Assembly: GCF_045037415.1 (NCBI RefSeq)
Contig: NZ_CP173438.1
Length of the DNA: 64,000 nucleotides
Origin: Escherichia coli
GTDB lineage: Bacteria > Pseudomonadota > Gammaproteobacteria > Enterobacterales > Enterobacteriaceae
Reading direction: 5' to 3' (one strand)
Shown here: positions 4,430 to 54,921 of the stretch, one piece after another
Position numbering within the stretch: the first letter of the stretch is position 1
Layout: each line of letters begins with the position of its first letter
Position numbers and translations under genes: made by a program
The notes under the pieces: model-generated
Databases searched by the model: none
The model's input: the letters and a program-made list of their open reading frames with translations, nothing else
What the model was told of the DNA's origin: nothing

Positions 4430-5421
4430 TGCCATTACTCGATATTCGTAACCTGACCATTGAATTTAAAACCGGTGATGAGTGGGTTAAAGCCGTCGAC
4501 CGCGTAAGTATGACCTTAACCGAAGGTGAAATCCGCGGTCTTGTTGGCGAATCCGGTTCCGGTAAAAGTTTGATTGCGAAAGCGATTTGTGGGGTGAATA
4601 AAGATAACTGGCGTGTTACTGCTGACCGTATGCGTTTTGATGATATCGATTTGCTGCGTCTCTCCGCACGCGAACGGCGCAAGCTGGTTGGTCACAACGT
4701 GTCGATGATTTTCCAGGAACCGCAGTCGTGTCTTGACCCTTCAGAACGTGTGGGTCGCCAGTTGATGCAAAACATCCCAGCCTGGACCTATAAAGGCCGT
4801 TGGTGGCAGCGTTTTGGCTGGCGCAAACGCCGTGCCATTGAACTGCTGCACCGCGTGGGGATTAAAGATCACAAAGATGCGATGCGCAGTTTTCCCTATG
4901 AGTTGACCGAAGGCGAATGTCAGAAAGTGATGATAGCCATTGCACTGGCGAATCAACCGCGTCTGCTGATTGCTGACGAACCGACAAACTCAATGGAGCC
5001 AACAACCCAGGCGCAAATCTTTCGCCTCCTGACGCGTCTCAACCAAAACAGCAATACCACTATTTTGCTTATCAGCCATGACTTACAAATGCTTAGCCAA
5101 TGGGCGGATAAAATTAACGTGCTTTACTGCGGTCAAACGGTGGAAACCGCGCCGAGTAAGGAGTTGGTGACGATGCCACACCATCCTTATACCCAGGCGC
5201 TGATCCGCGCGATACCAGACTTCGGCAGCGCGATGCCGCATAAAAGTCGCCTCAATACGCTGCCCGGCGCTATCCCGCTACTGGAACAGTTACCGATTGG
5301 TTGTCGTCTGGGGCCACGTTGCCCGTATGCACAACGAGAATGCATTGTGACGCCACGTTTGACGGGGGCGAAAAATCATCTCTATGCCTGTCATTTCCCA
5401 CTGAACATGGAGAAAGAGTGA
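4429..5421 (+). CDS. sapD: ABC transporter ATP-binding protein SapD
   Basis: Walker A motif GESGSGKS; 330 aa; start overlaps the sapC stop. Confidence 0.9.
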
Positions 5422-5422
5422 G

Positions 5423-6229
5423 ATGATCGAAACGCTACTTGAAGTGCGTAATTTAAGTAAAACGTTCCGCTACCGGACCGGCTGGTTTCGTCGTCAGACC
5501 GTAGAAGCGGTAAAACCCTTGAGCTTTACGCTACGTGAAGGCCAGACACTGGCGATTATCGGCGAGAATGGTTCGGGTAAATCCACGCTGGCAAAAATGC
5601 TGGCGGGAATGATAGAACCTACCAGCGGCGAGTTATTGATTGACGATCATCCGCTGCATTTTGGCGATTATTCCTTCCGCAGTCAGCGTATTCGCATGAT
5701 TTTTCAGGATCCTTCCACCTCGTTGAATCCCCGTCAACGTATCTCGCAAATTCTGGATTTTCCACTGCGCCTGAACACCGACCTGGAACCGGAACAGCGT
5801 CGCAAACAGATTATTGAAACGATGCGTATGGTTGGGCTGCTACCGGATCACGTCAGTTACTATCCGCATATGTTGGCACCCGGGCAAAAACAGCGTCTGG
5901 GTCTGGCGCGCGCGCTGATATTGCGCCCAAAAGTCATTATTGCCGATGAAGCCCTCGCCTCACTGGATATGTCGATGCGTTCGCAGTTGATTAATCTGAT
6001 GCTGGAGTTACAGGAAAAACAGGGCATTTCGTATATTTATGTTACCCAGCATATCGGAATGATGAAGCACATTAGCGACCAGGTGCTGGTGATGCATCAG
6101 GGCGAGGTTGTCGAGCGAGGCAGCACCGCAGATGTGCTGGCATCGCCGCTGCATGAACTCACCAAACGGCTGATCGCCGGTCATTTTGGCGAGGCATTGA
6201 CGGCGGATGCGTGGCGTAAGGACCGTTAG
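5423..6229 (+). CDS. sapF: ABC transporter ATP-binding protein SapF
   Basis: Walker A motif GENGSGKST; 268 aa; last gene of the sap operon. Confidence 0.9.
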   Translation: MIETLLEVRNLSKTFRYRTGWFRRQTVEAVKPLSFTLREGQTLAIIGENGSGKSTLAKMLAGMIEPTSGELLIDDHPLHFGDYSFRSQRIRMIFQDPSTSLNPRQRISQILDFPLRLNTDLEPEQRRKQIIETMRMVGLLPDHVSYYPHMLAPGQKQRLGLARALILRPKVIIADEALASLDMSMRSQLINLMLELQEKQGISYIYVTQHIGMMKHISDQVLVMHQGEVVERGSTADVLASPLHELTKRLIAGHFGEALTADAWRKDR

Positions 6230-6236
6230 TGTTTTG

Positions 6237-6272
6237 CACCTCATCCTGACAGGCCCCCCTCAGGATGAGGTG
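6237..6272. terminator. Bidirectional hairpin terminator between convergent sapF and the MFS gene
   Basis: Perfect 13-bp inverted repeat cacctcatcctga / tcaggatgaggtg around a C-rich loop. Confidence 0.5.
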
Positions 6273-6276
6273 TTCA

Positions 6277-7440
6277 TTACTTTTGGTTGTCGATTCTGGT
6301 GAGAGCAACCAGCAATGCCAGCGTATAACACACCGTAATTGCCAGACTCATTTTTAACAGTGTTTCTCCGCCAATTCCCGACAATGGCGCGGCTATACCG
6401 CCGAAGACAAACATGCTCATCCCCATCAACGCAGACGCCGTTCCAGATTCCTGCGTCCCTACTGCACTCATAGCCTCTGCCCCGCCAACAGTGCCGATGC
6501 CGCTACAAAATGCGATGGTGAAAAATAATGCCACCAGTGCCGGAATGGGCAATTGTATCCATGCGCATAAGACCGTGAGCAATGCACACAAAATTGCCGC
6601 TATCAGGCCACCTCGCAACAATGTCATCGCGTTAATCCGTCGCGCCAGGCGCGAGAAGATCCATGAAGCAATGATAAGTCCGGTGCCGTTAAGGCCAAAC
6701 ACCAGGCTAAATTGCATTGGACTAAAGCCAAATTCCTTCTGCAACACGAACGACGAAGAGCCGATATATGCAAACAAACCGGCCAGCATAAAACTTTGAA
6801 TCAGGCAAAAGCGCATAAAACGGCGGTTCTGCACCACGCTTCGTCCGGTTAATAGCAATGATGAGCCCCTTTTATTTTCTGGCAAGGTCTCATGAATAAA
6901 TAACAGACAGCCCAGCAACAGTACGGTGCTAATTTCAGCCATTACCCAGAATAAAGTGCGCCAGTCAAAAGTGCTAACAATGTACCCGCCCAGCACTGGC
7001 GACAACACCGGTGCCAGGCCATTCACCGTCATTAACAGCGCAAAAAACTGGGTCAACGTTACTCCCTGATATTTGTCACGAGCAATAGAACGAGAGAGCA
7101 CCGAACCACCCGCCCCCGCGATCCCTTGAATAAAACGCCAGACCACCAGCCAGTAAATATTGTTCGTTGTCGCGCATAAAATGGAAGAAACAATAAACAA
7201 TAGCAACGACAAGATTAACGGACGTTTACGCCCTATTTTGTCGCTCAGAGGGCCAAATAACAGTTGTCCGACGCCAAGACCAATCAGTGATGCGGTCAGG
7301 GTTAATTGCGTTATGGTCGTGGTTGCCGCCAGTTGCTCAGACATCTCCGGCAAAGCCGGCAAATAAAGATCGGTACACATCGGGCCGATACCGGCTAAAA
7401 GACCAAGAATCAATGCCCATGAAAGAGAGACTCTAGCCAT
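6277..7440 (-). CDS. MFS drug efflux transporter, Bcr/CflA (DHA1) type, 387 aa
   Basis: Twelve hydrophobic segments with MFS signatures (GPLSDKIGRKRP-like motif); last gene of the accessory efflux cluster. Confidence 0.75.
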   Translation of the reverse strand: MARVSLSWALILGLLAGIGPMCTDLYLPALPEMSEQLAATTTITQLTLTASLIGLGVGQLLFGPLSDKIGRKRPLILSLLLFIVSSILCATTNNIYWLVVWRFIQGIAGAGGSVLSRSIARDKYQGVTLTQFFALLMTVNGLAPVLSPVLGGYIVSTFDWRTLFWVMAEISTVLLLGCLLFIHETLPENKRGSSLLLTGRSVVQNRRFMRFCLIQSFMLAGLFAYIGSSSFVLQKEFGFSPMQFSLVFGLNGTGLIIASWIFSRLARRINAMTLLRGGLIAAILCALLTVLCAWIQLPIPALVALFFTIAFCSGIGTVGGAEAMSAVGTQESGTASALMGMSMFVFGGIAAPLSGIGGETLLKMSLAITVCYTLALLVALTRIDNQK

Positions 7441-7448
7441 ATTATTCC

Positions 7449-8822
7449 TTACTTGAGTGATGACATACCGCCGCCCAGCGACTGCCAGAGCGTGATTCGG
7501 TTTGTAAAATCAGTCAGTTGCAGTGCCAGCAGCTCCTGCTGTGCGCTCCACAAGCTGCGCTGCGCCGTCAACACGGTCAGGTAATCACCAACACCCGCCT
7601 GATAGCGACGCAAGCCAACATCGACCGTTTGTTGTTCAGCTTTAACATACTGGCGCTGTGCATCCAGTTGCTCTTCAAGCGTGGTCCGCCGCGCCAGTGC
7701 GTTAGCGACATCTTTAAATGCGCTCTGAACGGTTTTTTCATAGGTGGCAATGAGTCCACGCTTTTGTGCTTCTGCGTAACGAAGCTGCGCCAGATTACTT
7801 CCGCCAGTAAACAGCGGTAATGTGACCGATGGCGCAAATGACCAGATCTGCATTCCGTGGCTGAACAACGACGACAACGCGTCACTGCCAACACCGGCAC
7901 TGGCAGTCAGCGAAATCGTCGGGAAAAAGTTAGCCCGCGCCGCGCCAATATCTGCATTGGCGCTCTTCAAATTATGTTCCGCTTCCTGGATATCCGGGCG
8001 ACGCAGCAGAACATCAGATGATACTCCCGCAGGAACCAGACTTATCATTTGTTCCGGCAGGCTTTCCAGTGTTCCCGGTAGCAGATTTTCCGCAAGCGTT
8101 GTACCTGCCAGTAAGTTCAGCGCATTTTTATCCTGCATCACTTGTGTCTGATAGCTGGCAACGCTGGCGCGCGCTTGCTGATAAACACTCATCGCCTCAC
8201 TGACATCTGTCGCTGCCGCCGTGCCAACCTGTTGCTGGCGCTGGATAATTTTCAATGAGTTTTCTGCACTGGCCATCGTTTCTTTTGCCAGGGCCAGGTT
8301 GCTGTTATCAGCCGCCAGTGTCAGCCAGGCGGTGCTGATTTCAGCAATCAGCGTTAAACGAGTGTTCTGGGCTGTAAATTCACTGGCAAGCCAGGTTTCC
8401 CGCGCCGCCCGAGATAAACTCTGATTACGACCAAACAGATCTAACGTATAACTGGACACCGTGCCGTCAGCCTCGGCAGTTGTTCCCGTACCATTCGCCA
8501 GCGAACGGCTGCGGGTCGAACTTAAGGCCGCATTCACCGTCGGAAATAACGACGCATTAGTTTGCCCATAGAGCGCCCGTGCTGAGTCAATATCAGCAAT
8601 CGCTTTTTGCACATCGCGGTTACTGTTCAGTGCAATGGTTACTACCTGCTGCAATCGGGGATCGTGGATCACCTGCTGCCAGTCATGGCTGATTGCCTTC
8701 CCCTGGCCCTGTGCTCCCGGCAAGGTCGCCGGGATTGGGGATTCAGGCGTACTGTAGTGAGGATCGAGCGAGACACATCCCGCACTCAACAACACCAGAA
8801 AAATAAGAGAACGACGCAACAT
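7449..8822 (-). CDS. RND efflux outer membrane factor lipoprotein (NodT/OprM family), 457 aa
   Basis: Lipobox LLSAGC at the N-terminus, OprM/TolC-like repeat organisation, start 3 bp after the RND gene stop. Confidence 0.8.
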   Translation of the reverse strand: MLRRSLIFLVLLSAGCVSLDPHYSTPESPIPATLPGAQGQGKAISHDWQQVIHDPRLQQVVTIALNSNRDVQKAIADIDSARALYGQTNASLFPTVNAALSSTRSRSLANGTGTTAEADGTVSSYTLDLFGRNQSLSRAARETWLASEFTAQNTRLTLIAEISTAWLTLAADNSNLALAKETMASAENSLKIIQRQQQVGTAAATDVSEAMSVYQQARASVASYQTQVMQDKNALNLLAGTTLAENLLPGTLESLPEQMISLVPAGVSSDVLLRRPDIQEAEHNLKSANADIGAARANFFPTISLTASAGVGSDALSSLFSHGMQIWSFAPSVTLPLFTGGSNLAQLRYAEAQKRGLIATYEKTVQSAFKDVANALARRTTLEEQLDAQRQYVKAEQQTVDVGLRRYQAGVGDYLTVLTAQRSLWSAQQELLALQLTDFTNRITLWQSLGGGMSSLK

Positions 8823-8825
8823 AAC

Positions 8826-11800
8826 TTACTCCTGACGGCGCGGTTTACCGGCAAACAAACGTTTCACCAGTACAAAAAACAGAGGAACGAAGAAAATGGC
8901 CAGTAATGTAGCGGTCAGCGTGCCGCCAATAATGCCCGTACCAATGGCGATGCGGCTGTTCGCCCCTGCGCCGGTTGCTATCGCCAGCGGCATTACCCCC
9001 GCAATAAACGCCAGCGAGGTCATGATGATTGGGCGTAAACGAGTCTGCGCCGCGCGTAATGCCGCACGACTCAAGGAATAGCCCTCTGCAACCGCCGCTT
9101 CAGCAAATTCCACAATCAGAATGGCGTTTTTCGACGACAAGCCGATAGTAGTTAATAGCGCTACCTGGAAGTAAACGTCGTTGTTTAAATCACGCATCCA
9201 GGCCGCCAGCGCCGCGCCAAGAAGCCCCAGAGGGATCACCAGAATGACCGAGAACGGGACTGACCAGCTTTCGTACAGTGCTGCAAGGCAGAGGAAAACC
9301 ACCAGAATAGAAACTGCATACAGACTTAATGCCTGACCGCTGGCCAGTTTCTCCTGCAATGACAAACCACTCCAGGCCCAGGTTGTTCCCGCAGGAAGAC
9401 TGTTTGCCAGTTCCTCCATTTTTGTCATTGCATCGCCGGAACTAAAGCCAGTCGCGTTTTCGCCCTGAATTTCATAGGCTGCCGAGCCGTTGTAGCGCAC
9501 CAGTCTTTCCGGTCCATACAGCCAGCGGGTGGTCGCAAAAGCAGAGAATGGTGTCATGGCGTTATCGCTGCCGCGCACAAACCATTTACCTAAGTCTGAC
9601 GGCGCGGAACGAAATTCGCTGTCGCCCTGAATGTAGACTTTTTTCACACGACCACGGTCAATAAAGTCATTCACATAAGTACCGCCCCACGCACTGGACA
9701 GGGTGTCGGTGACATCATTCAAACTCAACCCTAATGACACCGCTTTATTACTATCAATATCTACCTGCAATTGCGGCATTTGTGGCAAATCATTGGCGCG
9801 TACAGAATGTAACTCCGGACTTTGATTCGCTTTTTCTATCAACTGATTACGCATTTGCAGCAGTGTTTCACGATCGGTTCCACCGTTAGCTAACAATTCA
9901 AACGTAAAACCATTGCTTTGGCCCAGCCCATCAACGGCTGGCGGCGTCATCGCAAATACCGTGGCATCACGAATTGTGCCCAGCTCTTTGGTTGCCCGTA
10001 GGGCGATAGCCTGGGCGGTGTTTTCTGCCCCTTTACGTTGAGACCAGTTTTTCAACGAAACAAACGCCATCCCGGTGTTCTGTCCGCTACCGCTAAAACT
10101 GAAACCATCAACGGTAAAGATGACATCGGTATTTGCTTTCTCGTTAATCAGGAACCAGTCAACAATCTGGCGATTCACTTCTGCTGTACGGGCAGCGGTC
10201 GCCCCGGCCGGCAGCGTGTACTGCACCATGATTTCGCCCTGGTCTTCAGTGGGTAAGAAACTGCCCGGCAGTTTCCACATCATCAGGGCCATTCCACCAC
10301 CCAGCACGACATAAAGCCCCATCGTTCGGGCTGCACGGCGCAGGACATAAATTACGCCTCGCTGATATTTATCTTCAGTACGGCGGTAAAAGCGGTTAAA
10401 TGCGCCGAAAAAGCCTTTTTTATGTGGTGGAACATGCTGGAGGACGGAACCGCACAGGGCGGGAGTCAAGGTCAATGCCACCACCACGGAAAGCAGCATT
10501 GCGGAGATGATGGTGATGGAGAACTGACGATAAATTACCCCCGTAGATCCCCCAAAGAAGGCCATCGGCAGGAATACGGCTGACAACACCAGCGCAATGG
10601 CAACCAGTGCGCCAGAAATCTCGCCCATTGATTTTTCCGTGGCTTCACGCGCGGGCAACCCTTCGTCACGCATAATGCGTTCGACGTTCTCTACCACCAC
10701 AATGGCATCGTCCACCAGCAAGCCGATCGCCAGCACCATTGCAAACAACGTCAGGGTATTAATCGAATAGCCAAACAACGCAAGAACGCCGAATGTGCCC
10801 AGCAAAACGACGGGGACAGCTAACGCCGGAATCAGTGTGGCACGCAGGTTTTGCAGGAATAAATACATCACGCAAACCACCAATACGATGGCTTCAAACA
10901 GCGTCTGAATTACGTCCTCTACGGAGATTTTAATAAATTCAGTGCTGTCTTTCGGGTATGCGATGTCGTATCCCTGCGGCATGTTCCGCTGGAATTCGGC
11001 AATCTTATCCTTGACCAGCGTCGCCGTATTCAGCGCATTCGCACCGGGCGAAAGCATTACAGCAACCCCGGCAGACGGGTGACCGTTAAGTTTGCCGATA
11101 GCGGTATAATCTTCACTGCCCATCTCAACGCGAGCCACATCTTTTATACGAACAACTGCGCCGTCTGACTGGCTTTTCACGATAATATTTTTGAACTGAT
11201 CCACCGTCTGCAAGCGAGACTGCGCACGTACCGTTGCGGTCAGTTGCTGAGTATCCGGTGAAGGCAATGCCCCTATTTTCCCGGCAGTAACCTGCACGTT
11301 TTGCGCTTCAATAGCACTTTGCACGTCTGAAGGCATCAGCGAGTAAGACGCCAGTTTGGCCGGGTCAAGCCAGATGCGCATAGCGTATTCCGCGCCAAAG
11401 ACTTGCAGACTCCCCACACCTTCAACACGCGCCAGCGGGTCCTGAACGTTACTGACCAGCCAGTCGGCGATATCCGAACTGGAGGCTTTGTCAGTGGTGT
11501 CATACACGGCAGCAATCAGCAAAAAGTTGCTTTGTGATTTCTCCACCGTAACACCCGTTTGCTGCACTTCGCTGGGTAGGCGCGACTCCGCCTGCTGAAT
11601 TTTATTCTGCACCTGAACCTGTGCAGTATCTGGATCGGTACCTTGTTCAAAGGTCACATTAATACTGACCGAACCATCAGAGCTACTGGTTGAGCTGAAA
11701 TAGAGTAAATTATCAAGCCCAGTGAGTTGTTGCTCGATAACCTGAGTCACGCTGTTCTCCAGCGTTTCGGCAGAAGCACCAGTATAAGTGGCTGAAATTT

Positions 11801-11933
11801 TAATGGTCGGCGGTGCAACGTCAGGATATTGCGCGACGGGCAATGTGCGAATAGCCAGAATCCCTGCCAACATAATCAAAATGGCGATAACCCAGGCAAA
11901 GACCGGGCGGCGAACAAAAAAGCGCGAAAACAT
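8826..11933 (-). CDS. RND multidrug efflux permease (AcrB/MexB HAE1 family), 1035 aa
   Basis: N-terminal region aligns closely by eye with E. coli AcrB (RPVFAWVIAI..MLAG..LPVAQYP..; LIPxxAVPVVLLGTF; GLLVDDAIVVVENVER). Confidence 0.9.
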   Translation of the reverse strand: MFSRFFVRRPVFAWVIAILIMLAGILAIRTLPVAQYPDVAPPTIKISATYTGASAETLENSVTQVIEQQLTGLDNLLYFSSTSSSDGSVSINVTFEQGTDPDTAQVQVQNKIQQAESRLPSEVQQTGVTVEKSQSNFLLIAAVYDTTDKASSSDIADWLVSNVQDPLARVEGVGSLQVFGAEYAMRIWLDPAKLASYSLMPSDVQSAIEAQNVQVTAGKIGALPSPDTQQLTATVRAQSRLQTVDQFKNIIVKSQSDGAVVRIKDVARVEMGSEDYTAIGKLNGHPSAGVAVMLSPGANALNTATLVKDKIAEFQRNMPQGYDIAYPKDSTEFIKISVEDVIQTLFEAIVLVVCVMYLFLQNLRATLIPALAVPVVLLGTFGVLALFGYSINTLTLFAMVLAIGLLVDDAIVVVENVERIMRDEGLPAREATEKSMGEISGALVAIALVLSAVFLPMAFFGGSTGVIYRQFSITIISAMLLSVVVALTLTPALCGSVLQHVPPHKKGFFGAFNRFYRRTEDKYQRGVIYVLRRAARTMGLYVVLGGGMALMMWKLPGSFLPTEDQGEIMVQYTLPAGATAARTAEVNRQIVDWFLINEKANTDVIFTVDGFSFSGSGQNTGMAFVSLKNWSQRKGAENTAQAIALRATKELGTIRDATVFAMTPPAVDGLGQSNGFTFELLANGGTDRETLLQMRNQLIEKANQSPELHSVRANDLPQMPQLQVDIDSNKAVSLGLSLNDVTDTLSSAWGGTYVNDFIDRGRVKKVYIQGDSEFRSAPSDLGKWFVRGSDNAMTPFSAFATTRWLYGPERLVRYNGSAAYEIQGENATGFSSGDAMTKMEELANSLPAGTTWAWSGLSLQEKLASGQALSLYAVSILVVFLCLAALYESWSVPFSVILVIPLGLLGAALAAWMRDLNNDVYFQVALLTTIGLSSKNAILIVEFAEAAVAEGYSLSRAALRAAQTRLRPIIMTSLAFIAGVMPLAIATGAGANSRIAIGTGIIGGTLTATLLAIFFVPLFFVLVKRLFAGKPRRQE

Positions 11934-13053
11934 CAGGCGTTGCCTCCATTAGCCTGAACTTCAACAGCCTTGACGGTCTGCCCTGAAGTGACTTTGGCAG
12001 AACCTTCAACAATCAGTCGGTCGCCGTTGTGCAGGCCGTTCAGCACCAGCCATTTATCACCATACGTTTCTCCCGTTTCGAGCGTTCGCTGCTCTACTTT
12101 ATTGTCTTTATTCACCACCAGCGCAGTTGCATTGCCTTTAGCATCGCGCGTAACGCCCTGTTGAGGCGCGAGAATAGCGTTTTCCATCACGCCTTCATCG
12201 ACACGAGCGCGAACAAACATTCCCGGTAATAACTGCTGTTGTGGATTGGGGAAAATTGCCCGTAATATCACCGAACCGGTAGACTCATCCACCGCGACTT
12301 CGGTGAGTTCCAGACGCCCTTTTTCGCTGTAGGTTGTGCCATCTTCCAGAATAAGTGAGACGCTCATGGTGTCACTGTTGGTCGCCAGTGACTGTTTACG
12401 CAGACGTAATAAATCGACACTGGAGCGAGTGAGGTCGACATACATTGTATCCAGACCACGAATAGTCGTTAACGCTGTATCCTGCGACGCGGTCACCAGT
12501 GCGCCAGGGGTTACCGACGAAATACCAATACGCCCCGAAATCGGTGCGGTTACCGTGGTCCAGTCAAGATTAATGCGCGCAGTTTCCAGTGCGGCTTTTT
12601 TCGCCTCTACACTGGCTTTATCTTGTGCACAGGTAGACTGAGCATCATCAGCATCCTGTTGTGAAACACCATTCTCTTTCACCAGTCGGGCATAACGCTG
12701 CGCTTTCTGGCAATCGGCTTTTACCAGTGCCTGTGCTTGTTGTAATGCTGCCCGGGCTTCATTCCATGCAGCCTGATAACTGGCCGCATCAATCTGGTAG
12801 AGAGGCTGTCCAGCCTTGACCAGATCACCTTCCTTAAATAAGCGTTTCTGGATAATTCCCCCAACCTGCGGACGTACTTCAGCACTGAGCGCAGCACTGG
12901 TGCGTCCGGTTAATTCACTGACTACCGAAACCGGTTGAGATTTGAGCGTAACAACGCCGACTTCTGTTTCTGACGGGGATGAATTGTTACTTTGCGTATT
13001 ATCACAACCCGATAAGAGCAGCATTGCCACTACAGATGTTGCTATATACTTCA
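11933..13053 (-). CDS. RND efflux periplasmic adaptor (membrane fusion protein, AcrA/MexA family) lipoprotein
   Basis: Start chosen at MKYIATS with GGAG Shine-Dalgarno upstream (ORF track extends to 13087); lipobox LLLSGC; stop overlaps the RND start. Confidence 0.8.
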
Positions 13054-13080
13054 TTATTTTCTCCAGGGTGAGAAATACCC

Positions 13081-13153
13081 TCCTCATTGAAATTAATGAG
13101 GATATGTCAGGGATATTCAGTTATAACGAACCCGCATCGCGAAATGAATTTCG
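13081..13153. promoter_or_regulatory. Candidate operator region upstream of the efflux operon: two perfect 7-bp-arm palindromes (CCTCATT-N6-AATGAGG at 13081-13100; GCGAAAT-N2-ATTTCGC at 13138-13153)
   Basis: Palindromes directly seen between the TetR gene and the adaptor gene start; a TetR-type operator is inferred. Confidence 0.3.
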
Positions 13154-13163
13154 CAATGAAATA

Positions 13164-13181
13164 AGGGGGATTAATATCCCC
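13164..13181 (-). terminator. Hairpin GGGGGAT-taat-ATCCCCC downstream of the TetR gene
   Basis: Perfect inverted repeat followed by a T-rich stretch on the minus strand. Confidence 0.3.
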
Positions 13182-13202
13182 CGCTATTGGTTAATTCTGT
13201 TC

Positions 13203-13769
13203 TTATTTATTTATCAACATACTAACAATATCCTGATATATTTCCTGCAGATGTTGTGGATCGCTTTTTTGCGGTGTTAAACGACGATAAACCGTACCTT
13301 CCATCATGGTAGCAAACACTTCAACGCAGCAACGAATGTGCTCGTCGCTAAGATGGGGATGCATTCTTTTCATATGTGCACAACCGTTAGCGAACATTCT
13401 GGCGTCAGCTTCTTCAAGCATTGCCATAACCCGCGGGTTGCGTGTGGCTTCTGCAGCCACTTCCAGCATCAGCGCGTCGTCGTCCTCATTTAAGGATTTA
13501 CGCAAGGCAAGGACTTCCGGGAAGTGATCGGTACGCGCGTCAATGTCCATTTGGGCAATACGAAAGTCGATGATACGGCGAACCATCTCTTCAATAATGG
13601 CGTCTTTGTTGGCGAAGTAACGATATATCTGACCCACGCTAAGCTGAGCTTCGCTGGCAATTTGCGACATACTGGCGGCATGAAATCCGCAGCGACGAAA
13701 ACACCGACGGGCGGCGTTAATGATTTCATCCTGACGCTGTTTGTGGCGTATCTCCAGCTTGCTGGTCAT
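13203..13769 (-). CDS. TetR/AcrR family transcriptional regulator, probable regulator of the adjacent efflux operon
   Basis: N-terminal helix-turn-helix signature (ASMSQIASEAQLSVGQIYRYFANKDAI); start placed at MTSKLE with AGGAG upstream (ORF track extends to 13868). Confidence 0.75.
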   Translation of the reverse strand: MTSKLEIRHKQRQDEIINAARRCFRRCGFHAASMSQIASEAQLSVGQIYRYFANKDAIIEEMVRRIIDFRIAQMDIDARTDHFPEVLALRKSLNEDDDALMLEVAAEATRNPRVMAMLEEADARMFANGCAHMKRMHPHLSDEHIRCCVEVFATMMEGTVYRRLTPQKSDPQHLQEIYQDIVSMLINK

Positions 13770-14246
13770 TTCTGTCTCCTGGCCTATCACTTGGTGAGAA
13801 TGATCATTCTCATTTTTGCTAATTATACGTTTCTCCAAAGTAATGGAAAGTATTTTTATCTTATTCATGATGCATATTCTGATAATGAAGAGATTGTGGA
13901 GATTCTGTGAAGATAGTTGACAATATTAAGTTGGAGTCAATTCATCAGAAAGACAGCGACTTGTTGTCGCCAGTTCTGTTTTCATCATTAAACTTATAGG
14001 AGCTAATACGAATAGTTTCAAAGTCAGATTCTATAAGATATTTCCCCAACCTCCCCCTTGCAGGCGTCAGGAGTAGATAACGCAAAATGCTCTGTACCGC
14101 AGCTTCTCTCCGCTACAGAAAGCGCAACTATAGCCACCCACAGCCAGGTTGATTATAATAACCGTTTATCAGTTCGTACTGTTTACTAAAACGACGAATC
14201 GCCTGATTTTCAGGCACAACAAGCATCAACAATAAGGATTAAAGCT

Positions 14247-15035
14247 ATGGGTTTTCTTTCCGGTAAGCGCATTCTGGTAACCGGTGTTGCCAGCAAACTG
14301 TCCATCGCCTACGGTATCGCTCAGGCGATGCACCGCGAAGGAGCTGAACTGGCATTCACCTACCAGAACGACAAACTGAAAGGCCGCGTAGAAGAATTTG
14401 CCGCTCAATTGGGTTCTGACATCGTTCTGCAGTGCGATGTTGCCGAAGATACCAGCATCGACACCATGTTCGCTGAACTGGGGAAAGTTTGGCCGAAATT
14501 TGACGGTTTCGTACACTCTATTGGTTTTGCACCTGGCGATCAGCTGGATGGTGACTATGTTAACGCCGTTACTCGTGAAGGCTTCAAAATTGCCCACGAC
14601 ATCAGCTCCTACAGCTTCGTTGCAATGGCAAAAGCTTGCCGCTCCATGCTGAATCCGGGTTCTGCCCTGCTGACCCTTTCCTACCTTGGCGCTGAGCGCG
14701 CTATCCCGAATTACAACGTTATGGGTCTGGCAAAAGCGTCTCTGGAAGCGAACGTGCGCTATATGGCGAACGCGATGGGTCCGGAAGGTGTGCGTGTTAA
14801 CGCCATCTCTGCTGGTCCGATCCGTACTCTGGCGGCTTCCGGTATCAAAGACTTCCGCAAAATGCTGGCTCATTGCGAAGCCGTTACCCCGATTCGCCGT
14901 ACCGTTACTATTGAAGATGTGGGTAACTCCGCGGCATTCCTGTGCTCCGATCTCTCTGCCGGTATCTCCGGTGAAGTGGTCCACGTTGACGGCGGTTTCA
15001 GCATCGCTGCAATGAACGAACTCGAACTGAAATAA
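14247..15035 (+). CDS. fabI: Enoyl-ACP reductase (NADH) FabI
   Basis: 262-aa ORF recognised as E. coli FabI ([28 protein letters not shown]...). Confidence 0.95.
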
Positions 15036-15179
15036 TCGTTCTGTTGGTAAATATTGGGCGGCGTTCTGCCGCCCGTTATCTCTGTTATACCTTTCTGATA
15101 TTTGTTATCGCCGATCCGTCTTTCTCCCCTTCCCGCCTTGCGTCAGGATAACGATTTCCTTTACGACCAAGGAGCGCCC

Positions 15180-37557: not shown

Positions 37558-37866
37558 TTAATTAGCCACGGCAAAATTAAGAAGAGCTTGAATTTTATTC
37601 AAGTGTGCGGGATATTCCATATCATTATCCGCATTGACGTCTTCAATAAACAGTATTAATTCAGTGATCAAATCATTAGCATCTTCATAACTAATACCCG
37701 TCAGTTCTGGTGACGTTTGCGAGCCATAATTAATTGTCAGATTATTCATTACTGACAAAACCAGAATAAAATATTTGTGACATATATCGCAGGTTGTTCG
37801 GTTTCCTAAGGCATAGTACAGCATATTGAGCAATGCCAGTATTCGTCGATTTTGCACATCGTTCAT
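37558..37866 (-). CDS. Hypothetical protein, 102 aa (AT-rich islet gene 2)
   Basis: ORF 10 bp downstream of the lipoprotein gene on the same strand, markedly AT-rich; no recognisable motif. Confidence 0.5.
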   Translation of the reverse strand: MNDVQNRRILALLNMLYYALGNRTTCDICHKYFILVLSVMNNLTINYGSQTSPELTGISYEDANDLITELILFIEDVNADNDMEYPAHLNKIQALLNFAVAN

Positions 37867-37875
37867 AATGACCTC

Positions 37876-38898
37876 CTATAACATAACTCCGCTGGCAATA
37901 AGAAGTTTTGCCAGCTCCTCTGACGCCTGTAGACCACTAATAACTTGAGAACGAAGGATCTCATTTCTACGCTCTAAATCCGCTTTTGAAAGAGATTTAT
38001 TAGAGTATAAATCTTGTAGATGATTTCCTTTATCCATGAAGGCATTAATAGCTTGTATTGCTGGAGCCGCCGGATCAGATGAACGCAATCTGCTTTCATT
38101 AAGATTAATTACTGCACTCAAAAATTCCTGCCTGCTCTTTAATGTCTTAAACTCTATATTTTTAGTATTTGCCTGGGCCTTATTGTAGTAATAAAAATTA
38201 TTACTGATGTTCGCATAATTATTCCGATCCATTTGCTGCTGTTTCGTTGCTATATCATCGAGTAAATCTTGTAAATTTCTTTGAAGTCGAGGCCAGTCAC
38301 TACCTACCGTTTTACCAACATTTTCTGATTTAATCTTCTCTTTGTATAATCCATTGAAATATTGAACTAAATCTTTAACAGCCACAACTGACTTAGTCAA
38401 TTCTTCACCTTCTGAAAGGCCAAGTAGTTTTTGGGCGTTGTTTGCGTGATCGAGCGCCTGATTAAGTAATATAATTTGTTTACTATCCTCAACATCCATA
38501 CCCACCGTCAACAACTCCACATAGGAACTCATACTGTTAACGACCTCAAGTGAAGCCAGTAGTTTTTGTTTTTCTGTTGTTGCCAATTGAATTTTAGTAA
38601 TGTCTTTATACGATGTTTTGCCCCCTTTCTCTGATTGCAAACATAAGGACTCTTTATTAGTATTATTTTCCATAATCGTTTCGTAATCAGGTCGCAATGC
38701 ACAATCCGGATTAGTCGCATAAAAATTAACAAGAAAGTTTTCACGAGAAGCATAGTATTGTTTAAAGAAACTTGCATTCGCCGCAACCGCCTTGTTACCC
38801 GCAGTAATAACAGTTTCAGCTTGTTCATTCTTCAATGCTTCGGTTGCACAACCTGAAAGCATTAACAGCGATAGAAATATTCCACTATATCTAATCAT
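37876..38898 (-). CDS. Hypothetical lipoprotein, 340 aa (AT-rich islet gene 1)
   Basis: Signal peptide with lipobox LMLSGC (Cys17); hydrophilic, helix-rich body; AT-rich codon usage unlike the flanking genes. Confidence 0.6.
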   Translation of the reverse strand: MIRYSGIFLSLLMLSGCATEALKNEQAETVITAGNKAVAANASFFKQYYASRENFLVNFYATNPDCALRPDYETIMENNTNKESLCLQSEKGGKTSYKDITKIQLATTEKQKLLASLEVVNSMSSYVELLTVGMDVEDSKQIILLNQALDHANNAQKLLGLSEGEELTKSVVAVKDLVQYFNGLYKEKIKSENVGKTVGSDWPRLQRNLQDLLDDIATKQQQMDRNNYANISNNFYYYNKAQANTKNIEFKTLKSRQEFLSAVINLNESRLRSSDPAAPAIQAINAFMDKGNHLQDLYSNKSLSKADLERRNEILRSQVISGLQASEELAKLLIASGVML

Positions 38899-49575: not shown

Positions 49576-50381
49576 TGGAACGCTACGAATCTCTGTTTGC
49601 CCAGTTGAAGGAGCGCAAAGAAGGCGCATTCGTTCCTTTCGTCACCCTCGGTGATCCGGGCATTGAGCAGTCGCTGAAAATTATCGATACGCTAATTGAA
49701 GCCGGTGCTGACGCGCTGGAGTTAGGCATCCCCTTCTCCGACCCACTGGCGGATGGCCCGACGATTCAAAACGCCACACTGCGTGCCTTTGCGGCGGGTG
49801 TGACCCCGGCGCAGTGCTTTGAGATGCTGGCACTGATTCGTCAAAAACATCCGACCATTCCTGTTGGCCTGCTGATGTACGCCAACCTGGTGTTTAACAA
49901 AGGCATTGATGAGTTTTACGCCCAGTGCGAGAAAGTCGGCGTCGATTCGGTGCTGGTTGCCGATGTGCCAGTTGAAGAGTCCGCGCCCTTCCGCCAGGCC
50001 GCGTTGCGTCATAATGTCGCACCTATCTTTATTTGCCCGCCGAATGCCGACGATGATTTGCTGCGCCAGATAGCCTCCTACGGTCGTGGATACACCTATT
50101 TATTGTCACGTGCGGGCGTGACCGGCGCAGAAAACCGCGCCGCGTTACCCCTCAATCATCTGGTTGCGAAGCTGAAAGAGTACAACGCTGCACCTCCATT
50201 GCAGGGATTTGGTATTTCCGCCCCTGATCAGGTAAAAGCAGCGATTGATGCAGGAGCTGCGGGCGCGATTTCTGGTTCGGCCATCGTTAAAATCATCGAG
50301 CAACATATTAATGAGCCAGAGAAAATGCTGGCGGCACTGAAAGCTTTTGTACAACCGATGAAAGCCACTACACGACGTTAA
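49575..50381 (+). CDS. trpA: Tryptophan synthase alpha chain
   Basis: 268 aa; start overlaps the trpB stop. Confidence 0.95.
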
Positions 50382-50390
50382 TTTGAGACA

Positions 50391-50416
50391 AACCGCCAGA
50401 AAACATCTGGCGGTTT
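50391..50416 (+). terminator. trp operon terminator (trp t)
   Basis: Hairpin aaccgccaga-aaacat-ctggcggttt immediately after the trpA stop. Confidence 0.85.
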
Positions 50417-50431
50417 ATTGATGGTAAAAAA

Positions 50432-50569
50432 TTAGAAGCGGTAACCTGCAGAGAACATAAATACCCACGGGTCAAGGCGTACGTTGTCAGAATAACGCCC
50501 TGCAGGCAGCACTGCGCCGTTGGATTTATATTTCACTTCGGTATCGATATCCATGTACCAGACCGACAT
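50432..50569 (-). pseudogene. ompW: ompW 3'-terminal fragment (last 45 codons, ...VRLDPWVFMFSAGYRF), candidate prophage attachment junction
   Basis: Translation ends with the characteristic OmpW C-terminus; the frame is closed by a stop immediately upstream of codon MSVW; the 5' part of the gene is absent from the window. Confidence 0.75.
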
Positions 50570-50756
50570 GTTTTAAAAAATGCAATAAGACATTGTATCT
50601 GAAAGAAAAAACAGGATTTGAGGCGCTTTTTTATACCGTTTTTCCGTGTTTTTAACTGCCTGATTTTATTGAAATCTTTTTTAGTTTTGCAGAAAGGATT
50701 TTTTGCTCGATCGCTTTAATTTTATACATTCCTGATAACGGAAATTTTTTTGCCCG

Positions 50757-50786
50757 TTGACAGTTTTTGTTCTCCGGGGCTATATT
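50757..50786 (+). promoter_or_regulatory. Candidate sigma70 promoter (TTGACA, 18-bp spacer, TATATT) upstream of the Rha gene
   Basis: Consensus-like hexamers read in the sequence; function inferred. Confidence 0.3.
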
Positions 50787-51013
50787 CCTCACACAACCGC
50801 AAAATCGGTTGTCGGGATTGGCGTCTCGGATAACATCACAACGCATAGCCGCGTTTGCGGTTTTTTTTGCGTTAAGCATTGCCACATTCGCATTATGGTG
50901 GGGCGTGCAGGGGCGGAGAAATCCGCGCCGGGTTTTGTGATGACCGGTTACGCCAACCCTGTACGTCTCACCACCTCCCTGATTGGCGTCAGAGGTGGTG
51001 ATCATCCAATTAA

Positions 51014-51586
51014 TTGGAGTCATCACATATGAATACAGCTATAACTTTTTCTAACGAGTCACCAAAAGTCTTTTTCAAAGATGGTCGCCTGGTTACCACC
51101 TCTCAAGCTGTTGCCGACTACTTCGATAAACAACATAAACACGTTTTAGCTAAGATTGACACACTCGACTGCTCTCCCGAATTTACATCAGCCAACTTTT
51201 CGGCCGATGTTCAGACTGTCGAAATTGGCAACGGCGCAGAACGTGAATCACGATGCTACCTGATCACAAAAGACGGCTTCATGTTCCTCGTAATGGGATT
51301 TACTGGCAAAAAAGCAGCCAGACTAAAAGAAGCTTACATTGAAAAATTTAACGCAATGGAAGAAGAACTCCACAAACGTCCTCCTGCAGCACAAAACTCC
51401 CCCGCCCCAAATAATGGATGCGCATTACTGATCCACTTCGATAAACACGGTCAGGTCGAGTTCACAGAAAAAGTCCCCGCCGATGCGATGGTATGCACGC
51501 TGGAACGGTTTAAATTTTATCTGGAGCAACATGGGTGGATCGTTGCCCGTAAAGAACAATTGGTGGAAAGGTTGATGCGGTTTTAA
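51014..51586 (+). CDS. Phage regulatory protein, Rha family (190 aa)
   Basis: N-terminal Rha-type motif (VTTSQAVADYFDKQHKHVLAKIDTL; LVMGFTGKKAARLKEAYIEKFNAME). Confidence 0.7.
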   Translation: MESSHMNTAITFSNESPKVFFKDGRLVTTSQAVADYFDKQHKHVLAKIDTLDCSPEFTSANFSADVQTVEIGNGAERESRCYLITKDGFMFLVMGFTGKKAARLKEAYIEKFNAMEEELHKRPPAAQNSPAPNNGCALLIHFDKHGQVEFTEKVPADAMVCTLERFKFYLEQHGWIVARKEQLVERLMRF

Positions 51587-51593
51587 TGAATGC

Positions 51594-51626
51594 AAAACCC
51601 CGGATGATCACCGGGGTTAATTTTAT
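51594..51626 (+). terminator. Rho-independent terminator downstream of the Rha gene
   Basis: Hairpin aaaaccccgg-atgatca-ccggggtt followed by AATTTTA. Confidence 0.6.
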
Positions 51627-51947
51627 CGAGCGTGATTGCCGCTAATCGCCATCGCTCTGATTGAGCGTAAATCATTCAGGTTATTCAGTTCTTCCTTCTG
51701 CTCTCGCTGACGTCAATAAATCCCATCATTGCGATCAACCTCATCCTTAACCATTGATGCGAGCAGTTCTTCCAGTTTCTGCGCTGACAGCTTTACCTGG
51801 TGATCTTCAGCATCTTCCCGGGCTATTGTGGTTCGCGCAGTGGCTGATTTTGCTGACATCACCACAGGGGGCAGACGGACCATTGAACCATGGCCTCCGG
51901 AACAAATAAGGGCAAAAATAACAACCACTATCGAAAGCTCACAAACT

Positions 51948-52085
51948 AACCGCAGCACGTTCCTGCATACGACGTGTCTGCGGCATAATCCCAATGATTA
52001 CTCCCTGACAGGATTTGCAGGCCACTCAATATCAGGTGCAGTTGATGTATCAACACGATTCAACAATACCCGATATTTATTCCAT
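51948..52085. repeat. Direct repeat copy 1 (about 140 bp): tfa 3' end plus its terminator hairpin
   Basis: Roughly 85-90 percent identical by eye to 52998-53135 (aaccgcagcacgt...ggcataatcccaatgattactccctgacag...ggccactcaatatcaggtgcagttgatgtatcaacacg). Confidence 0.8.
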
Positions 52086-52267
52086 GCCTCCAGCAACGAT
52101 CTTTCTTCCTCCGTTGCGATTTCCAGATCTACAGCATCCTGCAGTGGCGCAATATACTCACTGAATTCCTGGATGTAGAACTGTGTGGTGACGGTCTTCC
52201 AGCCATTCGGCTCCTGCTGTATCGAAGCATACCAGGCTATTTCAATATCGCTATGCTGCGGCAGCAT
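51998..52267 (-). pseudogene. Tail fibre assembly protein (Tfa) C-terminal fragment, 89 codons
   Basis: C-terminus ...[36 protein letters not shown] resembles the intact Tfa at 54952-55479; the N-terminal half is missing. Confidence 0.65.
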
Positions 52268-52323
52268 TTAACCCCTTGTAATTCATCGCCATAATTGATT
52301 TAATTCACAAATAAAACTATAAC

Positions 52324-52992
52324 ATGGTGAAATCAATGAAAAAAAACACAGATGATGGGGCTAAAATTTACACACCACTTACCCTAAAGCTTTATGACTG
52401 GTGGGTTTTGGGAGTATCAAATCGGCTTGCATGGGGATGTCCTACAAAGGAACACCTTCTTCCACACTTTCTGGAACATGTAGGTAACAACCATCTGGAT
52501 ATTGGTGTTGGAACTGGGTTTTACCTTACTCACGTACCTGAGAGTAGTCTGATATCTTTAATGGATTTGAACGAAGCTAGCCTGAACGCGGCATCTACAA
52601 GGGCTGGGGAATCAAAAATTAAACATAAAATTAGCCATGATGTTTTTGAACCTTATCCCGCGGCGTTACATGGTCAATTTGATTCCATTTCCATGTTTTA
52701 CCTTCTTCACTGCCTGCCTGGAAATATATCTACAAAAAGCTGTGTAATACGCAATGCGGCGCAGGCCTTAACTGACGATGGAACTCTATACGGAGCCACA
52801 ATTCTTGGCGATGGAGTTGTGCACAATAGCTTCGGTCAAAAACTGATGCGCATTTACAATCAGAAAGGCATCTTTTCAAACACAAAAGATTCCGAAGAAG
52901 GCTTAACACATATACTCTCAGAGCATTTCGAGAATGTTAAAACCAAGGTTCAAGGTACTGTAGTAATGTTTTCCGCTTCAGGGAAAAAATAG
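52324..52992 (+). CDS. Class I SAM-dependent methyltransferase (222 aa), prophage moron
   Basis: Motif I LDIGVGTGFY; AT-rich coding sequence; flanked by the diverged tfa 3' repeats. Confidence 0.7.
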   Translation: MVKSMKKNTDDGAKIYTPLTLKLYDWWVLGVSNRLAWGCPTKEHLLPHFLEHVGNNHLDIGVGTGFYLTHVPESSLISLMDLNEASLNAASTRAGESKIKHKISHDVFEPYPAALHGQFDSISMFYLLHCLPGNISTKSCVIRNAAQALTDDGTLYGATILGDGVVHNSFGQKLMRIYNQKGIFSNTKDSEEGLTHILSEHFENVKTKVQGTVVMFSASGKK

Positions 52993-52997
52993 CATCC

Positions 52998-53135
52998 AAC
53001 CGCAGCACGTTCTTGCTTAAGACGTGCTGCGGCATAATCCCAATGATTACTCCCTGACAGGGTTCGTAGGCCACTCAATATCAGGTGCAGTTGATGTATC
53101 AACACGGTTCAGTAACACCCGATACTTTTTCTAGG
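52998..53135. repeat. Direct repeat copy 2: tfa 3' remnant plus hairpin (ccgcagcacgt...acgtgctgcgg)
   Basis: Paralogous to 51948-52085; the hairpin lies immediately after the methyltransferase stop. Confidence 0.8.
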
Positions 53136-53139
53136 CTTC

Positions 53140-53373
53140 CACCACCAGCACGACAAGATGCCGCATACAGTGAACCAGTCAGTCCAGTTTTCAGACAACC
53201 AGTGCGTCACCTTTTTGAAGGCGCTTTAAAGCACGTTTTAATCCAGGTCGGCCTGTCCTTGTTCCGCTTAATTTATCTTCAAATATTTGTTCATATCCTG
53301 CACAAACAAGAGCGTTTCGTTGCAGATCTGTATTCTGGTCATTTGTTGATACCCTTACATAGCCAATCAGCAC
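53140..53373 (-). pseudogene. pin: DNA invertase Pin/Gin/Hin family, truncated and interrupted
   Basis: N-terminal serine recombinase signature (V)LIGYVRVSTNDQNTDLQRNAL...LKRLQKGDALVV, then in-frame stop, degenerate sequence and fusion to the tfa remnant about 75 codons in. Confidence 0.8.
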
Positions 53374-53427
53374 GCTGAATCTCCCGTCCAAAAGCACAAA
53401 TCATGCCATGCAGGCCAGAAACCGCCA

Positions 53428-53453
53428 TTATCTAAAACCTCGGTTTACGAGAA
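53428..53453. repeat. Invertase crossover site (pix/gix-like, TTATCTAAAACCTCGGTTTACGAGAA)
   Basis: 26-bp site matching the Gin/Pin crossover consensus, inverted relative to the site at 56509-56534. Confidence 0.85.
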
Positions 53454-54386: not shown

Positions 54387-54387
54387 T

Positions 54388-54921
54388 ATGATGCACTTAA
54401 AGAACATAAAAGCGGGTAATGCTAAAACACTGGAACAGTATGAGTTAACAAAGAAACACGGAGTTATCTGGCTTTACTCTGAGGACGGAAAAAACTGGTA
54501 TGAGGAAGTGAAAAACTTTCAGCCAGACACCATAAAGATTGTTTACGATGAAAATAATATTATTGTTGCCATAACCAAAGATGCCTCCACACTTAACCCT
54601 GAAGGTTATAGCGTCGTTGAGATTCCTGATATTACCGCCAACCGGCGTGCTGACGACTCAGGTAAATGGATGTTTAAAGATGGCGCAGTCATTAAACGTG
54701 TATATACCGAAGAAGAGTTGCGCCTACAGACGGAAAACCAGAAAAAAATATTATTACAGCAGGCCAGAGAAAAAACGCAGTTCTGGCAAACACAGCTTAC
54801 TTTGGGGATTATCACTGATTCAGACAGACAGCAACTGATGAACTGGATGCGATACGTGCAACAGGTTGAGACAACTGATACCTCGGTTCTTCCTGTAACA
54901 TTCCCGGAACCACCAGAATAA
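54388..54921 (+). CDS. Tail fibre assembly protein Tfa (cognate to the silent cassette)
   Basis: 177 aa paralogous to the minus-strand Tfa (MxHLKNIxAGNxKT..EQYxLTKK.GVIWLY.EDGKNWY). Confidence 0.8.

Follow-up and report, generated by a model that had tools for sequence, protein, structure and literature searches.

The eefRABCD efflux operon at the sapF-fabI site of an Escherichia coli chromosome and the structured spacer between its genes eefR and eefA

The window, as the whole 64,000-nucleotide stretch of Escherichia coli DNA analysed here (contig NZ_CP173438.1) is called, carries between sapF and fabI five minus-strand genes in the order eefR-eefA-eefB-eefC-eefD, all of them co-oriented, tightly packed and intact (Table 1), and no inactivating internal stop was found in any of the five ORFs. 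A previous sequence-only reading had described a TetR regulator, an adaptor, an AcrB-like pump, an outer-membrane factor and an MFS pump at this place; the ORFs are located where it put them and their families were confirmed by profile scores. Two of its start codons were corrected. The regulator had been started at 13868, the limit of its maximal ORF (13203-13868), whose 33 extra codons span the -10 box, the promoter and the operator; the annotated and published start is 13769, preceded by an AGGAG ribosome-binding site, and the resulting 188-aa protein has a TetR-type N-terminus. Likewise, the adaptor had been started at 13087 (maximal ORF 11933-13087), the annotated and actual start being 13054. 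As for the packing, the reported gaps of 3 and 8 bp are real, but the supposed ATGA overlap between adaptor and pump is a single nucleotide shared by the eefA stop and the eefB start (TGATG).

Table 1. Features of the eefRABCD locus and its borders (window coordinates)
Feature	Position	Strand	Description
sapF	5423-6229	+	left flanking gene
sapF/eefD hairpin	6237-6272		13-bp stem between convergent genes; arms shared with K-12-type genomes
eefD	6277-7440	-	Bcr/CflA-type (DHA1) MFS efflux pump, 387 aa
eefC	7449-8822	-	NodT/OprM-type outer-membrane factor lipoprotein, 457 aa, lipobox LSAGC
eefB	8826-11933	-	HAE1 RND permease, 1035 aa
eefA	11933-13054	-	periplasmic adaptor lipoprotein, 373 aa, lipobox LLSGC
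Hairpin H3	13081-13102	-	just upstream of the eefA ribosome-binding site; compensatory changes
Hairpin H2	13135-13158	-	CAUUGCGAAAU-UC-AUUUCGCGAUG; strongly covarying, G·U pairs on the operon strand
Hairpin H1	13155-13182	-	GGGGGAU-AUUA-AUCCCCC followed by UUAUUUCAUU; from terminator scan
eefR	13203-13769	-	TetR-family autorepressor, 188 aa; V45 and R50 present
EefR operator	13795-13812		perfect 18-bp palindrome TGAGAATGATCATTCTCA, 9 bp downstream of the -10 box
eefR promoter-like site	13822-13849	-	TTTCCA, 16 nt, TATAAT; 10/12 consensus matches
Right edge of variable segment	14124-14246	+	shared with K-12 from 14124 on; fabI promoter-like site at 14131-14159
fabI	14247-15035	+	right flanking gene

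All four pump proteins scored above the cut-offs of their family profiles: EefA as an RND adaptor (TIGR01730, 273 bits against 94.9), EefB as an HAE1 permease (TIGR00915, 1553.7 against 940.35), EefC as a NodT-type factor (TIGR01845, 373.8 against 210) and EefD as a Bcr/CflA transporter (TIGR00710, 279.5 against 200.9). The features that define an HAE1 tripartite system were all found, namely a permease above cut-off with its Asp-Asp, Lys and Thr residues (D408, D409, K935 and T972, the proton relay, are all in place in EefB) together with an adaptor and a NodT-type factor that are both lipoproteins. The solved structures closest to EefB were AcrB and MexB, and the best PDB match of EefC was OprM (4e-101). 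The description of the cluster as a self-contained, MexAB-OprM-style system with its own outer-membrane lipoprotein plus a Bcr/CflA-type pump agrees with the literature and with the RefSeq annotation.

We are highly confident that positions 6277-13769 are the chromosomal eefRABCD operon, with one promoter, repressed by EefR and long resident at the sapF-fabI site in the genus. This locus is not new, as it has already been published twice as the seventh RND efflux operon (PMC12817139; PMC12482432). [quoted passage not shown] In addition, the operon of the window is 100% identical to that of CP054253.1, which in turn is 99.48% identical to that of ATCC 35218 (Table S6, PMC12482432). The sequence-only reading had presented the cluster as an accessory island and had noted that its being a common, already characterised E. 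coli efflux locus would speak against this, which is precisely the case, with carriage in 2037 of the 5426 complete genomes.

The evidence for repression by EefR, for its operator, for co-transcription of the genes and for efflux by the overexpressed pumps comes from published experiments, carried out in strains ATCC 35218 and ATCC 25922 (PMC12817139 / PMC12482432). EefR represses its own gene, RT-PCR products span every junction of the operon, and in an eefR mutant the eefA to eefD transcripts increase 27- to 83-fold (PMC12817139 / PMC12482432). The promoter-like site upstream of eefR agrees with the published promoter-reporter result, and by EMSA EefR binds TGAGAA-N6-TTCTCA upstream of eefR, whereas a 148-bp fragment downstream of this gene does not compete (PMC12817139 / PMC12482432). 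In the window this pattern was matched without mismatches at the operator, 0.09 matches being expected by chance in the window when up to one mismatch is allowed. The operator is also kept about 40 bp upstream of the eefR ATG in Escherichia, Kluyvera, Enterobacter, Lelliottia, Leclercia, Phytobacter, Kosakonia and Dryocola.

The region between eefR and eefA had been described as containing three perfect palindromes. The inverted repeats are indeed there, but one arm pair has a mismatch, which in RNA is a G·U pair, and the strongest hairpin (13165-13182) lies outside the interval 13081-13153 given for them. Three hairpins of this spacer are conserved in at least seven genera. The first after eefR, H1, looks like an intrinsic terminator or attenuator as judged from its sequence, and a hairpin followed by a T-run stands at its place in most of 26 related spacers, Phytobacter and MAG L031 having the hairpin without a clear T-run. 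In the alignment of H2, 96% of the cells are paired and changes on both sides were seen in 9 of the 10 pairs; the corresponding values for H3 are 87% and 7 of 9. RNAalifold on the MAFFT alignment recovered H2 alone, since that alignment does not keep H1 and H3 in register, and the conservation of H1 to H3 was read from per-sequence folding and a supplied structure. A model of the spacer gave a single match per locus, always between eefR and eefA, and none in the loci in which eefR is directly followed by eefD. No Rfam family was matched in 12900-14300 by covariance-model search up to E = 1, and the spacer hairpins are described in neither PMC12817139 nor PMC12482432.

The palindromes could be DNA operators for EefR or another regulator, the former having been proposed by the sequence-only reading for those at 13081-13153. 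Besides the inverted repeats themselves, positions 13069-13086, immediately upstream of eefA, fit the operator pattern with a single mismatch, and Shen et al. speculate on promoter elements or unidentified regulators in this region (PMC12482432). However, the operator of EefR is upstream of its own gene, the fragment downstream of eefR does not compete in EMSA (PMC12817139 / PMC12482432), and neither the other Escherichia loci nor any other genus has the one-mismatch site. This candidate second operator was consequently rejected as a chance match. Furthermore, the stems keep pairing while their sequences change between genera and the G·U pairs exist on the operon strand only, which argues for RNA and against a protein-binding DNA motif, and no sigma-70-like site was found on the operon strand of the spacer. 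Altogether, the spacer comparison indicates that the palindromes behave like RNA hairpins, and we consider it unlikely that they are operators. Two other candidates were discarded. An internal sigma-70 promoter was rejected because of the lack of a site, and an independent promoter would also fit poorly with how strongly the operon is de-repressed when eefR is mutated. A leader peptide starting at the ATGCGG after H2 was rejected because several Kluyvera sequences lack its ATG, the sole Shine-Dalgarno-like sequence (GGAG) is just 1 nt away from this codon, and neither the length nor the stop of the frames is constant.

In the reading that we favour, the operon works as follows. The single promoter upstream of eefR drives all five genes, and EefR, bound to the 18-bp palindrome over the expected transcription start, keeps eefR and the pump genes nearly silent. 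When EefR is inactivated, or presumably freed by a ligand, transcription would read through the terminator-like hairpin and the structured spacer into eefA-eefB-eefC-eefD; with H1 between eefR and eefA, this single-transcript model fits only if termination is partial. The products are a MexAB-OprM-like pump, made of the EefA lipoprotein adaptor, the proton-driven EefB permease and the EefC lipoprotein channel, with EefD as a separate inner-membrane MFS exporter. When overexpressed in cells lacking AcrB, the eef pumps export dyes, sanguinarine and several antibiotics.

It is possible, though we put it forward only tentatively, that the spacer is an undescribed, conserved cis-acting RNA leader formed by a partial terminator (H1) and the covarying H2 and H3, and that productive expression of eefABCD needs it through mRNA stability or translation. 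Plasmid pBReefABC in an acrB-less strain raised MICs 8- to 32-fold, and ethidium efflux by the eef pumps was reported (PMC12817139 / PMC12482432); according to Shen et al. the resistance phenotype needs sequence upstream of eefA, and their constructs begin at window position 13367, so that the whole spacer is included (PMC12482432). Pugh et al., on the other hand, saw no MIC change either on deletion or on expression of eefABC, and in their constructs, which do not contain the spacer, the eefA ATG is joined to pET vectors used in MG1655 with no IPTG (PMC12817139). This null result, for which low expression from those vectors may account, leaves a contribution of the natively expressed operon to drug resistance hypothetical. 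An RNA leader, if real, would explain the requirement for sequence upstream of eefA and would help to reconcile both studies, the spacer hairpins being perhaps the cis element over which they disagree.

With regard to its distribution, the eef segment occupies the sapF-fabI site in about 38% of complete E. coli genomes, counting as carriers those with at least 80% of window 5400-15100, and ycjD is found in the remainder. The statement that K-12 has ycjD alone between sapF and fabI was borne out for K-12-type genomes, and phylogroups A, B1 and C would have lost the operon. The nucleotide identity of eef across phylogroups is 98-100%, comparable with that of acrAB-tolC. By blastn alignment with K-12, the left edge of the variable segment is marked by the hairpin between sapF and eefD, with the junction at approximately 6273; from its sequence this hairpin is probably a two-way terminator. 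The same fabI-eefRABCD-sapF arrangement is present in E. albertii, E. whittamii and the Escherichia species record MOD1-EC7003. No integrase, recombinase, IS or tRNA gene was detected at the locus, nor any junction repeat of at least 8 bp, and the G+C content of the operon (0.51) is that of its flanks (0.50-0.52). PADLOC gave no match for two neighbouring hypothetical genes. The shared site in other species, the absence of mobility signs and the backbone G+C content point to an old residency, and eef would be an old feature of the genus, with the unrelated ycjD segment having taken its place in phylogroups A, B1 and C. Pugh et al. describe eef remnants inside this segment of K-12 (PMC12817139). 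These were rejected here, as blastn with a word size of 7 between the junctions gave only matches of 11-17 nt (E >= 0.84), none of them significant. Moreover, eefR lies directly beside an eefD-like gene, without eefABC, in Erwinia, Pantoea, Winslowiella, Lonsdalea, Brenneria and some Kluyvera and Kosakonia, which suggests that eefR and the MFS gene formed an older unit and were separated by a later insertion of the RND module.

A recently acquired mobile island, or a plasmid-borne operon spreading horizontally in E. coli, would be the opposite history. Shen et al. list five E. coli 'plasmid' records with the operon (PMC12482432), Pugh et al. propose a lateral origin given the resemblance of the proteins to Pseudomonas Mex systems (PMC12817139), the operon is found in other genomic contexts beyond Escherichia, and one Enterobacter IncFIB record carries eefRABC. 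However, the three of the five 'plasmid' records that were examined (CP134663.1, CP054253.1 and CP141085.1) were all typed as non-mobilizable; CP134663.1 has a size of 4.9 Mb, and the other two have ymjA-sapABCDF and fabI-yciW-rnb-pdeR as flanks, which are chromosomal and comprise the essential gene fabI. These three records look like chromosome mislabelled as plasmid, which weakens the published warning of 'rapid spread' by plasmid carriage. Together with the identical insertion site in E. albertii and E. whittamii and the lack of mobility signs described above, they largely refute a mobile or plasmid origin, which we regard as very improbable. Least probable of all is that the operon is a decaying, functionless remnant, as its silence in the laboratory, its deletion without MIC phenotype (PMC12817139), its loss in phylogroups A, B1 and C and its disruption by an IS in S. 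dysenteriae might suggest, because the five ORFs are intact with their catalytic residues and lipoboxes, the identity across phylogroups matches that of acrAB-tolC, the pumps work when expressed (PMC12817139, PMC12482432), and purifying selection acts across genera on both the operator and the spacer hairpins. The operon matters as a seventh RND pump limited to the E. coli lineages causing most extra-intestinal disease and silent until its repressor is mutated.

Among known systems, EefABC of Klebsiella (Enterobacter) aerogenes and K. pneumoniae is likewise an RND pump of the tripartite type that includes an outer-membrane factor of its own, and Shen et al. give identities of 78, 87 and 75% to the Klebsiella EefA, EefB and EefC (PMC12482432). 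According to both papers, eefR and eefD are absent from the K. aerogenes operon, which H-NS silences (PMC12817139, PMC12482432), and our EefR search recovered no locus from K. aerogenes or from K. pneumoniae. The orthologues of Enterobacter and Lelliottia show the same identity levels as those of Klebsiella for the three proteins. With MexAB-OprM of Pseudomonas aeruginosa and AcrAB-TolC of E. coli the eef system has in common its architecture and proton-relay residues. Unlike the Acr pumps, it has its own channel gene, and its repressor gene is co-directional and the first of the operon. The comparison of the pump with characterised transporters, proposed by the sequence-only reading, gave AcrB and MexB as the nearest solved structures, and the eef proteins stayed below every curated NCBIfam equivalog cut-off for AcrB (1379 against 2150), AcrD (1411 against 1854), MexA (401 against 750), OqxAB (OqxB, 845 against 2200), AcrA, MdtE and AdeK; the locus is therefore none of those pumps. 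EefD was also below the cut-off as a TcaB equivalog (313 against 475). In emrRAB- and marRAB-type operons, as in eef, the repressor gene comes first and a single promoter operator controls repressor and pump genes, their repressor belonging to the MarR family and EefR to the TetR family; we know of no conserved three-hairpin spacer in operons of this type. Finally, the operon of the window shares with the published eefRABCD the gene order, the sapF-fabI site, the protein lengths, the 20 residues, the operator and about 99.5% nucleotide identity to ATCC 35218. Apart from one base in the central spacer of the operator, a T for a C that makes the palindrome of the window perfect, no difference was observed and it is simply another allele.

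Five uninterrupted ORFs, free of internal stops, lie at 6277-13868 on the minus strand of the window and are flanked by sapF and fabI. The products of four of them exceeded the curated family cut-offs of NCBIfam: the RND adaptor EefA (TIGR01730, 273 vs. 94.9), the HAE1 RND permease EefB (TIGR00915, 1553.7 vs. 940), the NodT-type outer-membrane factor EefC (TIGR01845, 373.8 vs. 210) and the Bcr/CflA MFS pump EefD (TIGR00710, 279.5 vs. 200.9). The fifth product, EefR, has an N-terminus of TetR type. The NCBIfam cut-offs of named pumps (AcrB, AcrD, MexA, OqxB, etc.) were reached by none of the five. All the proton-relay residues (D408, D409, K935, T972) were found in EefB, and lipoboxes in EefA and EefC. 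ORFs and scores agree with the five-gene cluster between sapF and fabI described in the sequence-only reading, whose intergenic gaps of 3 and 8 bp were also exact; the ATGA overlap that it gave for adaptor and pump is actually of one base, TGATG.

This locus has already been published as eefRABCD (Pugh et al., bioRxiv 2024, PMC12817139; Shen et al., PMC12482432). The 188-aa EefR represses its own promoter, and the palindrome TGAGAACGATCATTCTCA, located upstream of eefR, is its binding site; all five genes share a transcript, and when eefR is lost, the transcripts of eefA-D increase 27- to 83-fold, with multidrug resistance in an AcrB-lacking strain (Shen et al., PMC12482432). The 20 residues named in both papers are all at their published positions in the window proteins, the operator is a perfect palindrome, and the operon of the window matches that of CP054253.1 at 100% identity, for which an identity of 99.48% to the operon of ATCC 35218 is listed (Shen Table S6, PMC12482432). 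Therefore, membership of the cluster in eefRABCD is established. The earlier interpretation of the cluster is correct and its observation is confirmed with minor corrections; the outcome that it had itself named as a refutation is what was found, this being a common, already characterised E. coli efflux locus.

Two gene starts were corrected. RefSeq annotates a regulator of 188 aa and an adaptor of 373 aa. The TetR ORF had been read as 221 aa from 13868, the true start being the ATG at 13769, with AGGAG ahead; the first 33 codons of the longer ORF span the promoter-like site and the operator. The adaptor start, placed at 13087, is at 13054. The operator follows the −10 box after 9 bp and covers the expected transcription start, a position that fits repression by occlusion, and it is kept in nearly all Enterobacteriaceae loci among those collected for EefR relatives. 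The palindromes at 13081-13153 had been proposed as the TetR target, to be assayed by EMSA. An operator-like site with one mismatch (13069-13086) is not conserved, even among Escherichia loci, and in the published EMSA no competition was seen with a fragment from downstream of eefR (Shen et al., PMC12482432); therefore, the proposed EMSA target is not the operator.

Features of the eef locus in the window
Feature	Position	Strand	Sequence or remark
sapF	5423-6229	+	
sapF-eefD intergenic hairpin	6237-6272		common to K-12
H3, spacer hairpin	13081-13102		
H2, spacer hairpin	13135-13158		
H1, spacer hairpin	13165-13182		GGGGGAU-AUUA-AUCCCCC then UUAUUUCAUU; detected by terminator scan
EefR operator	13795-13812		perfect palindrome TGAGAATGATCATTCTCA
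eefR promoter-like site	13849-13822	minus	TTTCCA-16-TATAAT
fabI	14247-15035	+	

By megablast (coverage of at least 80%), window 5400-15100 was found in 2037 of 5426 complete E. coli genomes with 98-100% identity, the remaining genomes having sapF-ycjD-fabI, which bears out the ycjD content attributed to the K-12 interval. In a survey of about 19,000 assemblies, the operon was present in phylogroups B2, D, E, F and G, always at the fabI-sapF site, with ycjD instead in A, B1 and C (Pugh et al., PMC12817139; bioRxiv 2024). K-12 homology stops at about 6273, right after the common hairpin, and restarts at 14124, 7 bp ahead of the −35 element of the fabI promoter-like site (TAGCCA-17-TATAAT, within 14124-14160); therefore, the promoter of the essential fabI is intact in both alleles. 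The variable segment is of about 7.85 kb in the window vs. about 0.6 kb in K-12. Whereas Pugh et al. described conserved eef fragments, blastn gave no significant eef match within the K-12 segment. The K-12-type interval (L002:2900-3494) holds ycjD (DUF559), a partial duplicate of its 3' end (GGAGACGGTGCTGGAGAATATTC..., present twice) and GC-rich repeat-like sequences (GGGAGAGGGTTAGGGTGAGGGG); this make-up points to a cassette associated with repeats and not to the mere scar of a deletion.

No tRNA, integrase, IS or junction repeat was found at the eef segment, and its GC (0.51) equals that of the flanks. The fabI-eefRABCD-sapF arrangement is also present in E. albertii, E. whittamii and Escherichia sp. 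MOD1-EC7003, and among the collected loci no other genus has these flanks. These data support that the operon is an old resident of the genus which was replaced later, as also concluded by Pugh et al. (PMC12817139). Shen Table S6 (PMC12482432) includes five E. coli 'plasmid' records with the operon. The three checked, CP054253.1 (252 kb), NZ_CP141085.1 (386 kb) and NZ_CP134663.1 (4.9 Mb), carry eefRABCD and were typed as non-mobilizable; in the first two it lies between ymjA-sapABCDF and fabI-yciW-rnb-pdeR, essential fabI included. These records, which serve in the literature as evidence for plasmid carriage, look like chromosome labelled as plasmid.

Across genera, eefR-ABC-D is found in Escherichia, some Kluyvera, Kosakonia oryzendophytica, Enterobacter soli and Enterobacter sp. 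JUb54, and eefR-ABC without eefD in most Enterobacter, Lelliottia, Leclercia, Phytobacter and Dryocola. In Kluyvera georgiana, Kosakonia sacchari, Erwinia, Pantoea, Winslowiella, Lonsdalea and Brenneria, eefR is directly followed by an eefD-like gene, whose product has 46-68% identity to EefD (EefR orthologue and adjacent MFS, no RND genes: loci L012, L013, L024, L026, L029, L030, L032, L034, L040, L043, L044, L046, L048 and L051). Given these architectures and the conserved operator, the repressor/MFS pair may be the older unit. In Erwiniaceae, the stop codon of the EefR orthologue and the EefD-like start codon nearly abut.

Elsewhere (50570-64000), the window ceases to match the backbone of strain SK1144 beside ompW and runs on into one end of a lambdoid prophage, with gpJ and tail-fibre genes, which carries ISEc12 (IS21-family); 214 complete genomes cover 80% or more of the query 50300-64000. 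Two hypothetical genes (102 and 340 aa; 37558-38898, minus strand) lie between cobO and rluB in otherwise standard backbone, without PADLOC match; the K-12 interval presumably has no genes.

The eefR-eefA spacer (148 bp, 13055-13202) contains three hairpins and its folding beats 200 of 200 shuffles (z = −3.4). Among 48 loci encoding EefR relatives (one genome per species), 26 such spacers were compared, from Escherichia, Kluyvera, Enterobacter, Lelliottia, Leclercia, Phytobacter, Dryocola and two metagenome bins. Folded individually, each of the 26 gave these three hairpins in an unchanged order, and most have a T-run after H1, with no clear one in Phytobacter and the metagenome bin L031. In a plain MAFFT alignment, 86% of cells were paired under the supplied structure vs. 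41-51% with partners slid, and 18 of 25 pairs had changed on both sides vs. 4-10 in the slid controls; none of 500 shuffles attained these values. Covariance-model realignment, which favours the structure by construction, gave 96% pairing with both-side changes in 9 of 10 pairs for H2, and 87% with 7 of 9 for H3. H1 was badly captured by columns because its stem length differs between genera. The conserved U·G pairs of H2 are possible on the operon strand only, which indicates an RNA element rather than a DNA-binding site. The spacer had no Rfam match, and its covariance model had exactly one match in each locus, without exception in the eefR-eefA interval. In MOD1-EC7003, a 124-bp insertion resembling an ERIC/IRU repeat (L008:10590-10715) lies between the eefR stop codon and H1, with the three hairpins intact downstream.

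Neither Pugh et al. (PMC12817139) nor Shen et al. (PMC12482432) mentions a terminator or hairpins in this spacer. Multi-gene constructs cannot give the phenotype unless they contain sequence from upstream of eefA (Shen et al., PMC12482432); the forward primer used for them maps to 13348-13367, so the whole spacer was included in those inserts. In the Pugh constructs, eefA was joined through an NdeI site to pET vectors, the host was MG1655 and no IPTG was used (PMC12817139); we infer that their null MICs were due to low expression, possibly also to the missing leader. Compared with the published operon, the only possibly new element of the locus is the conserved structured eefR-eefA spacer.
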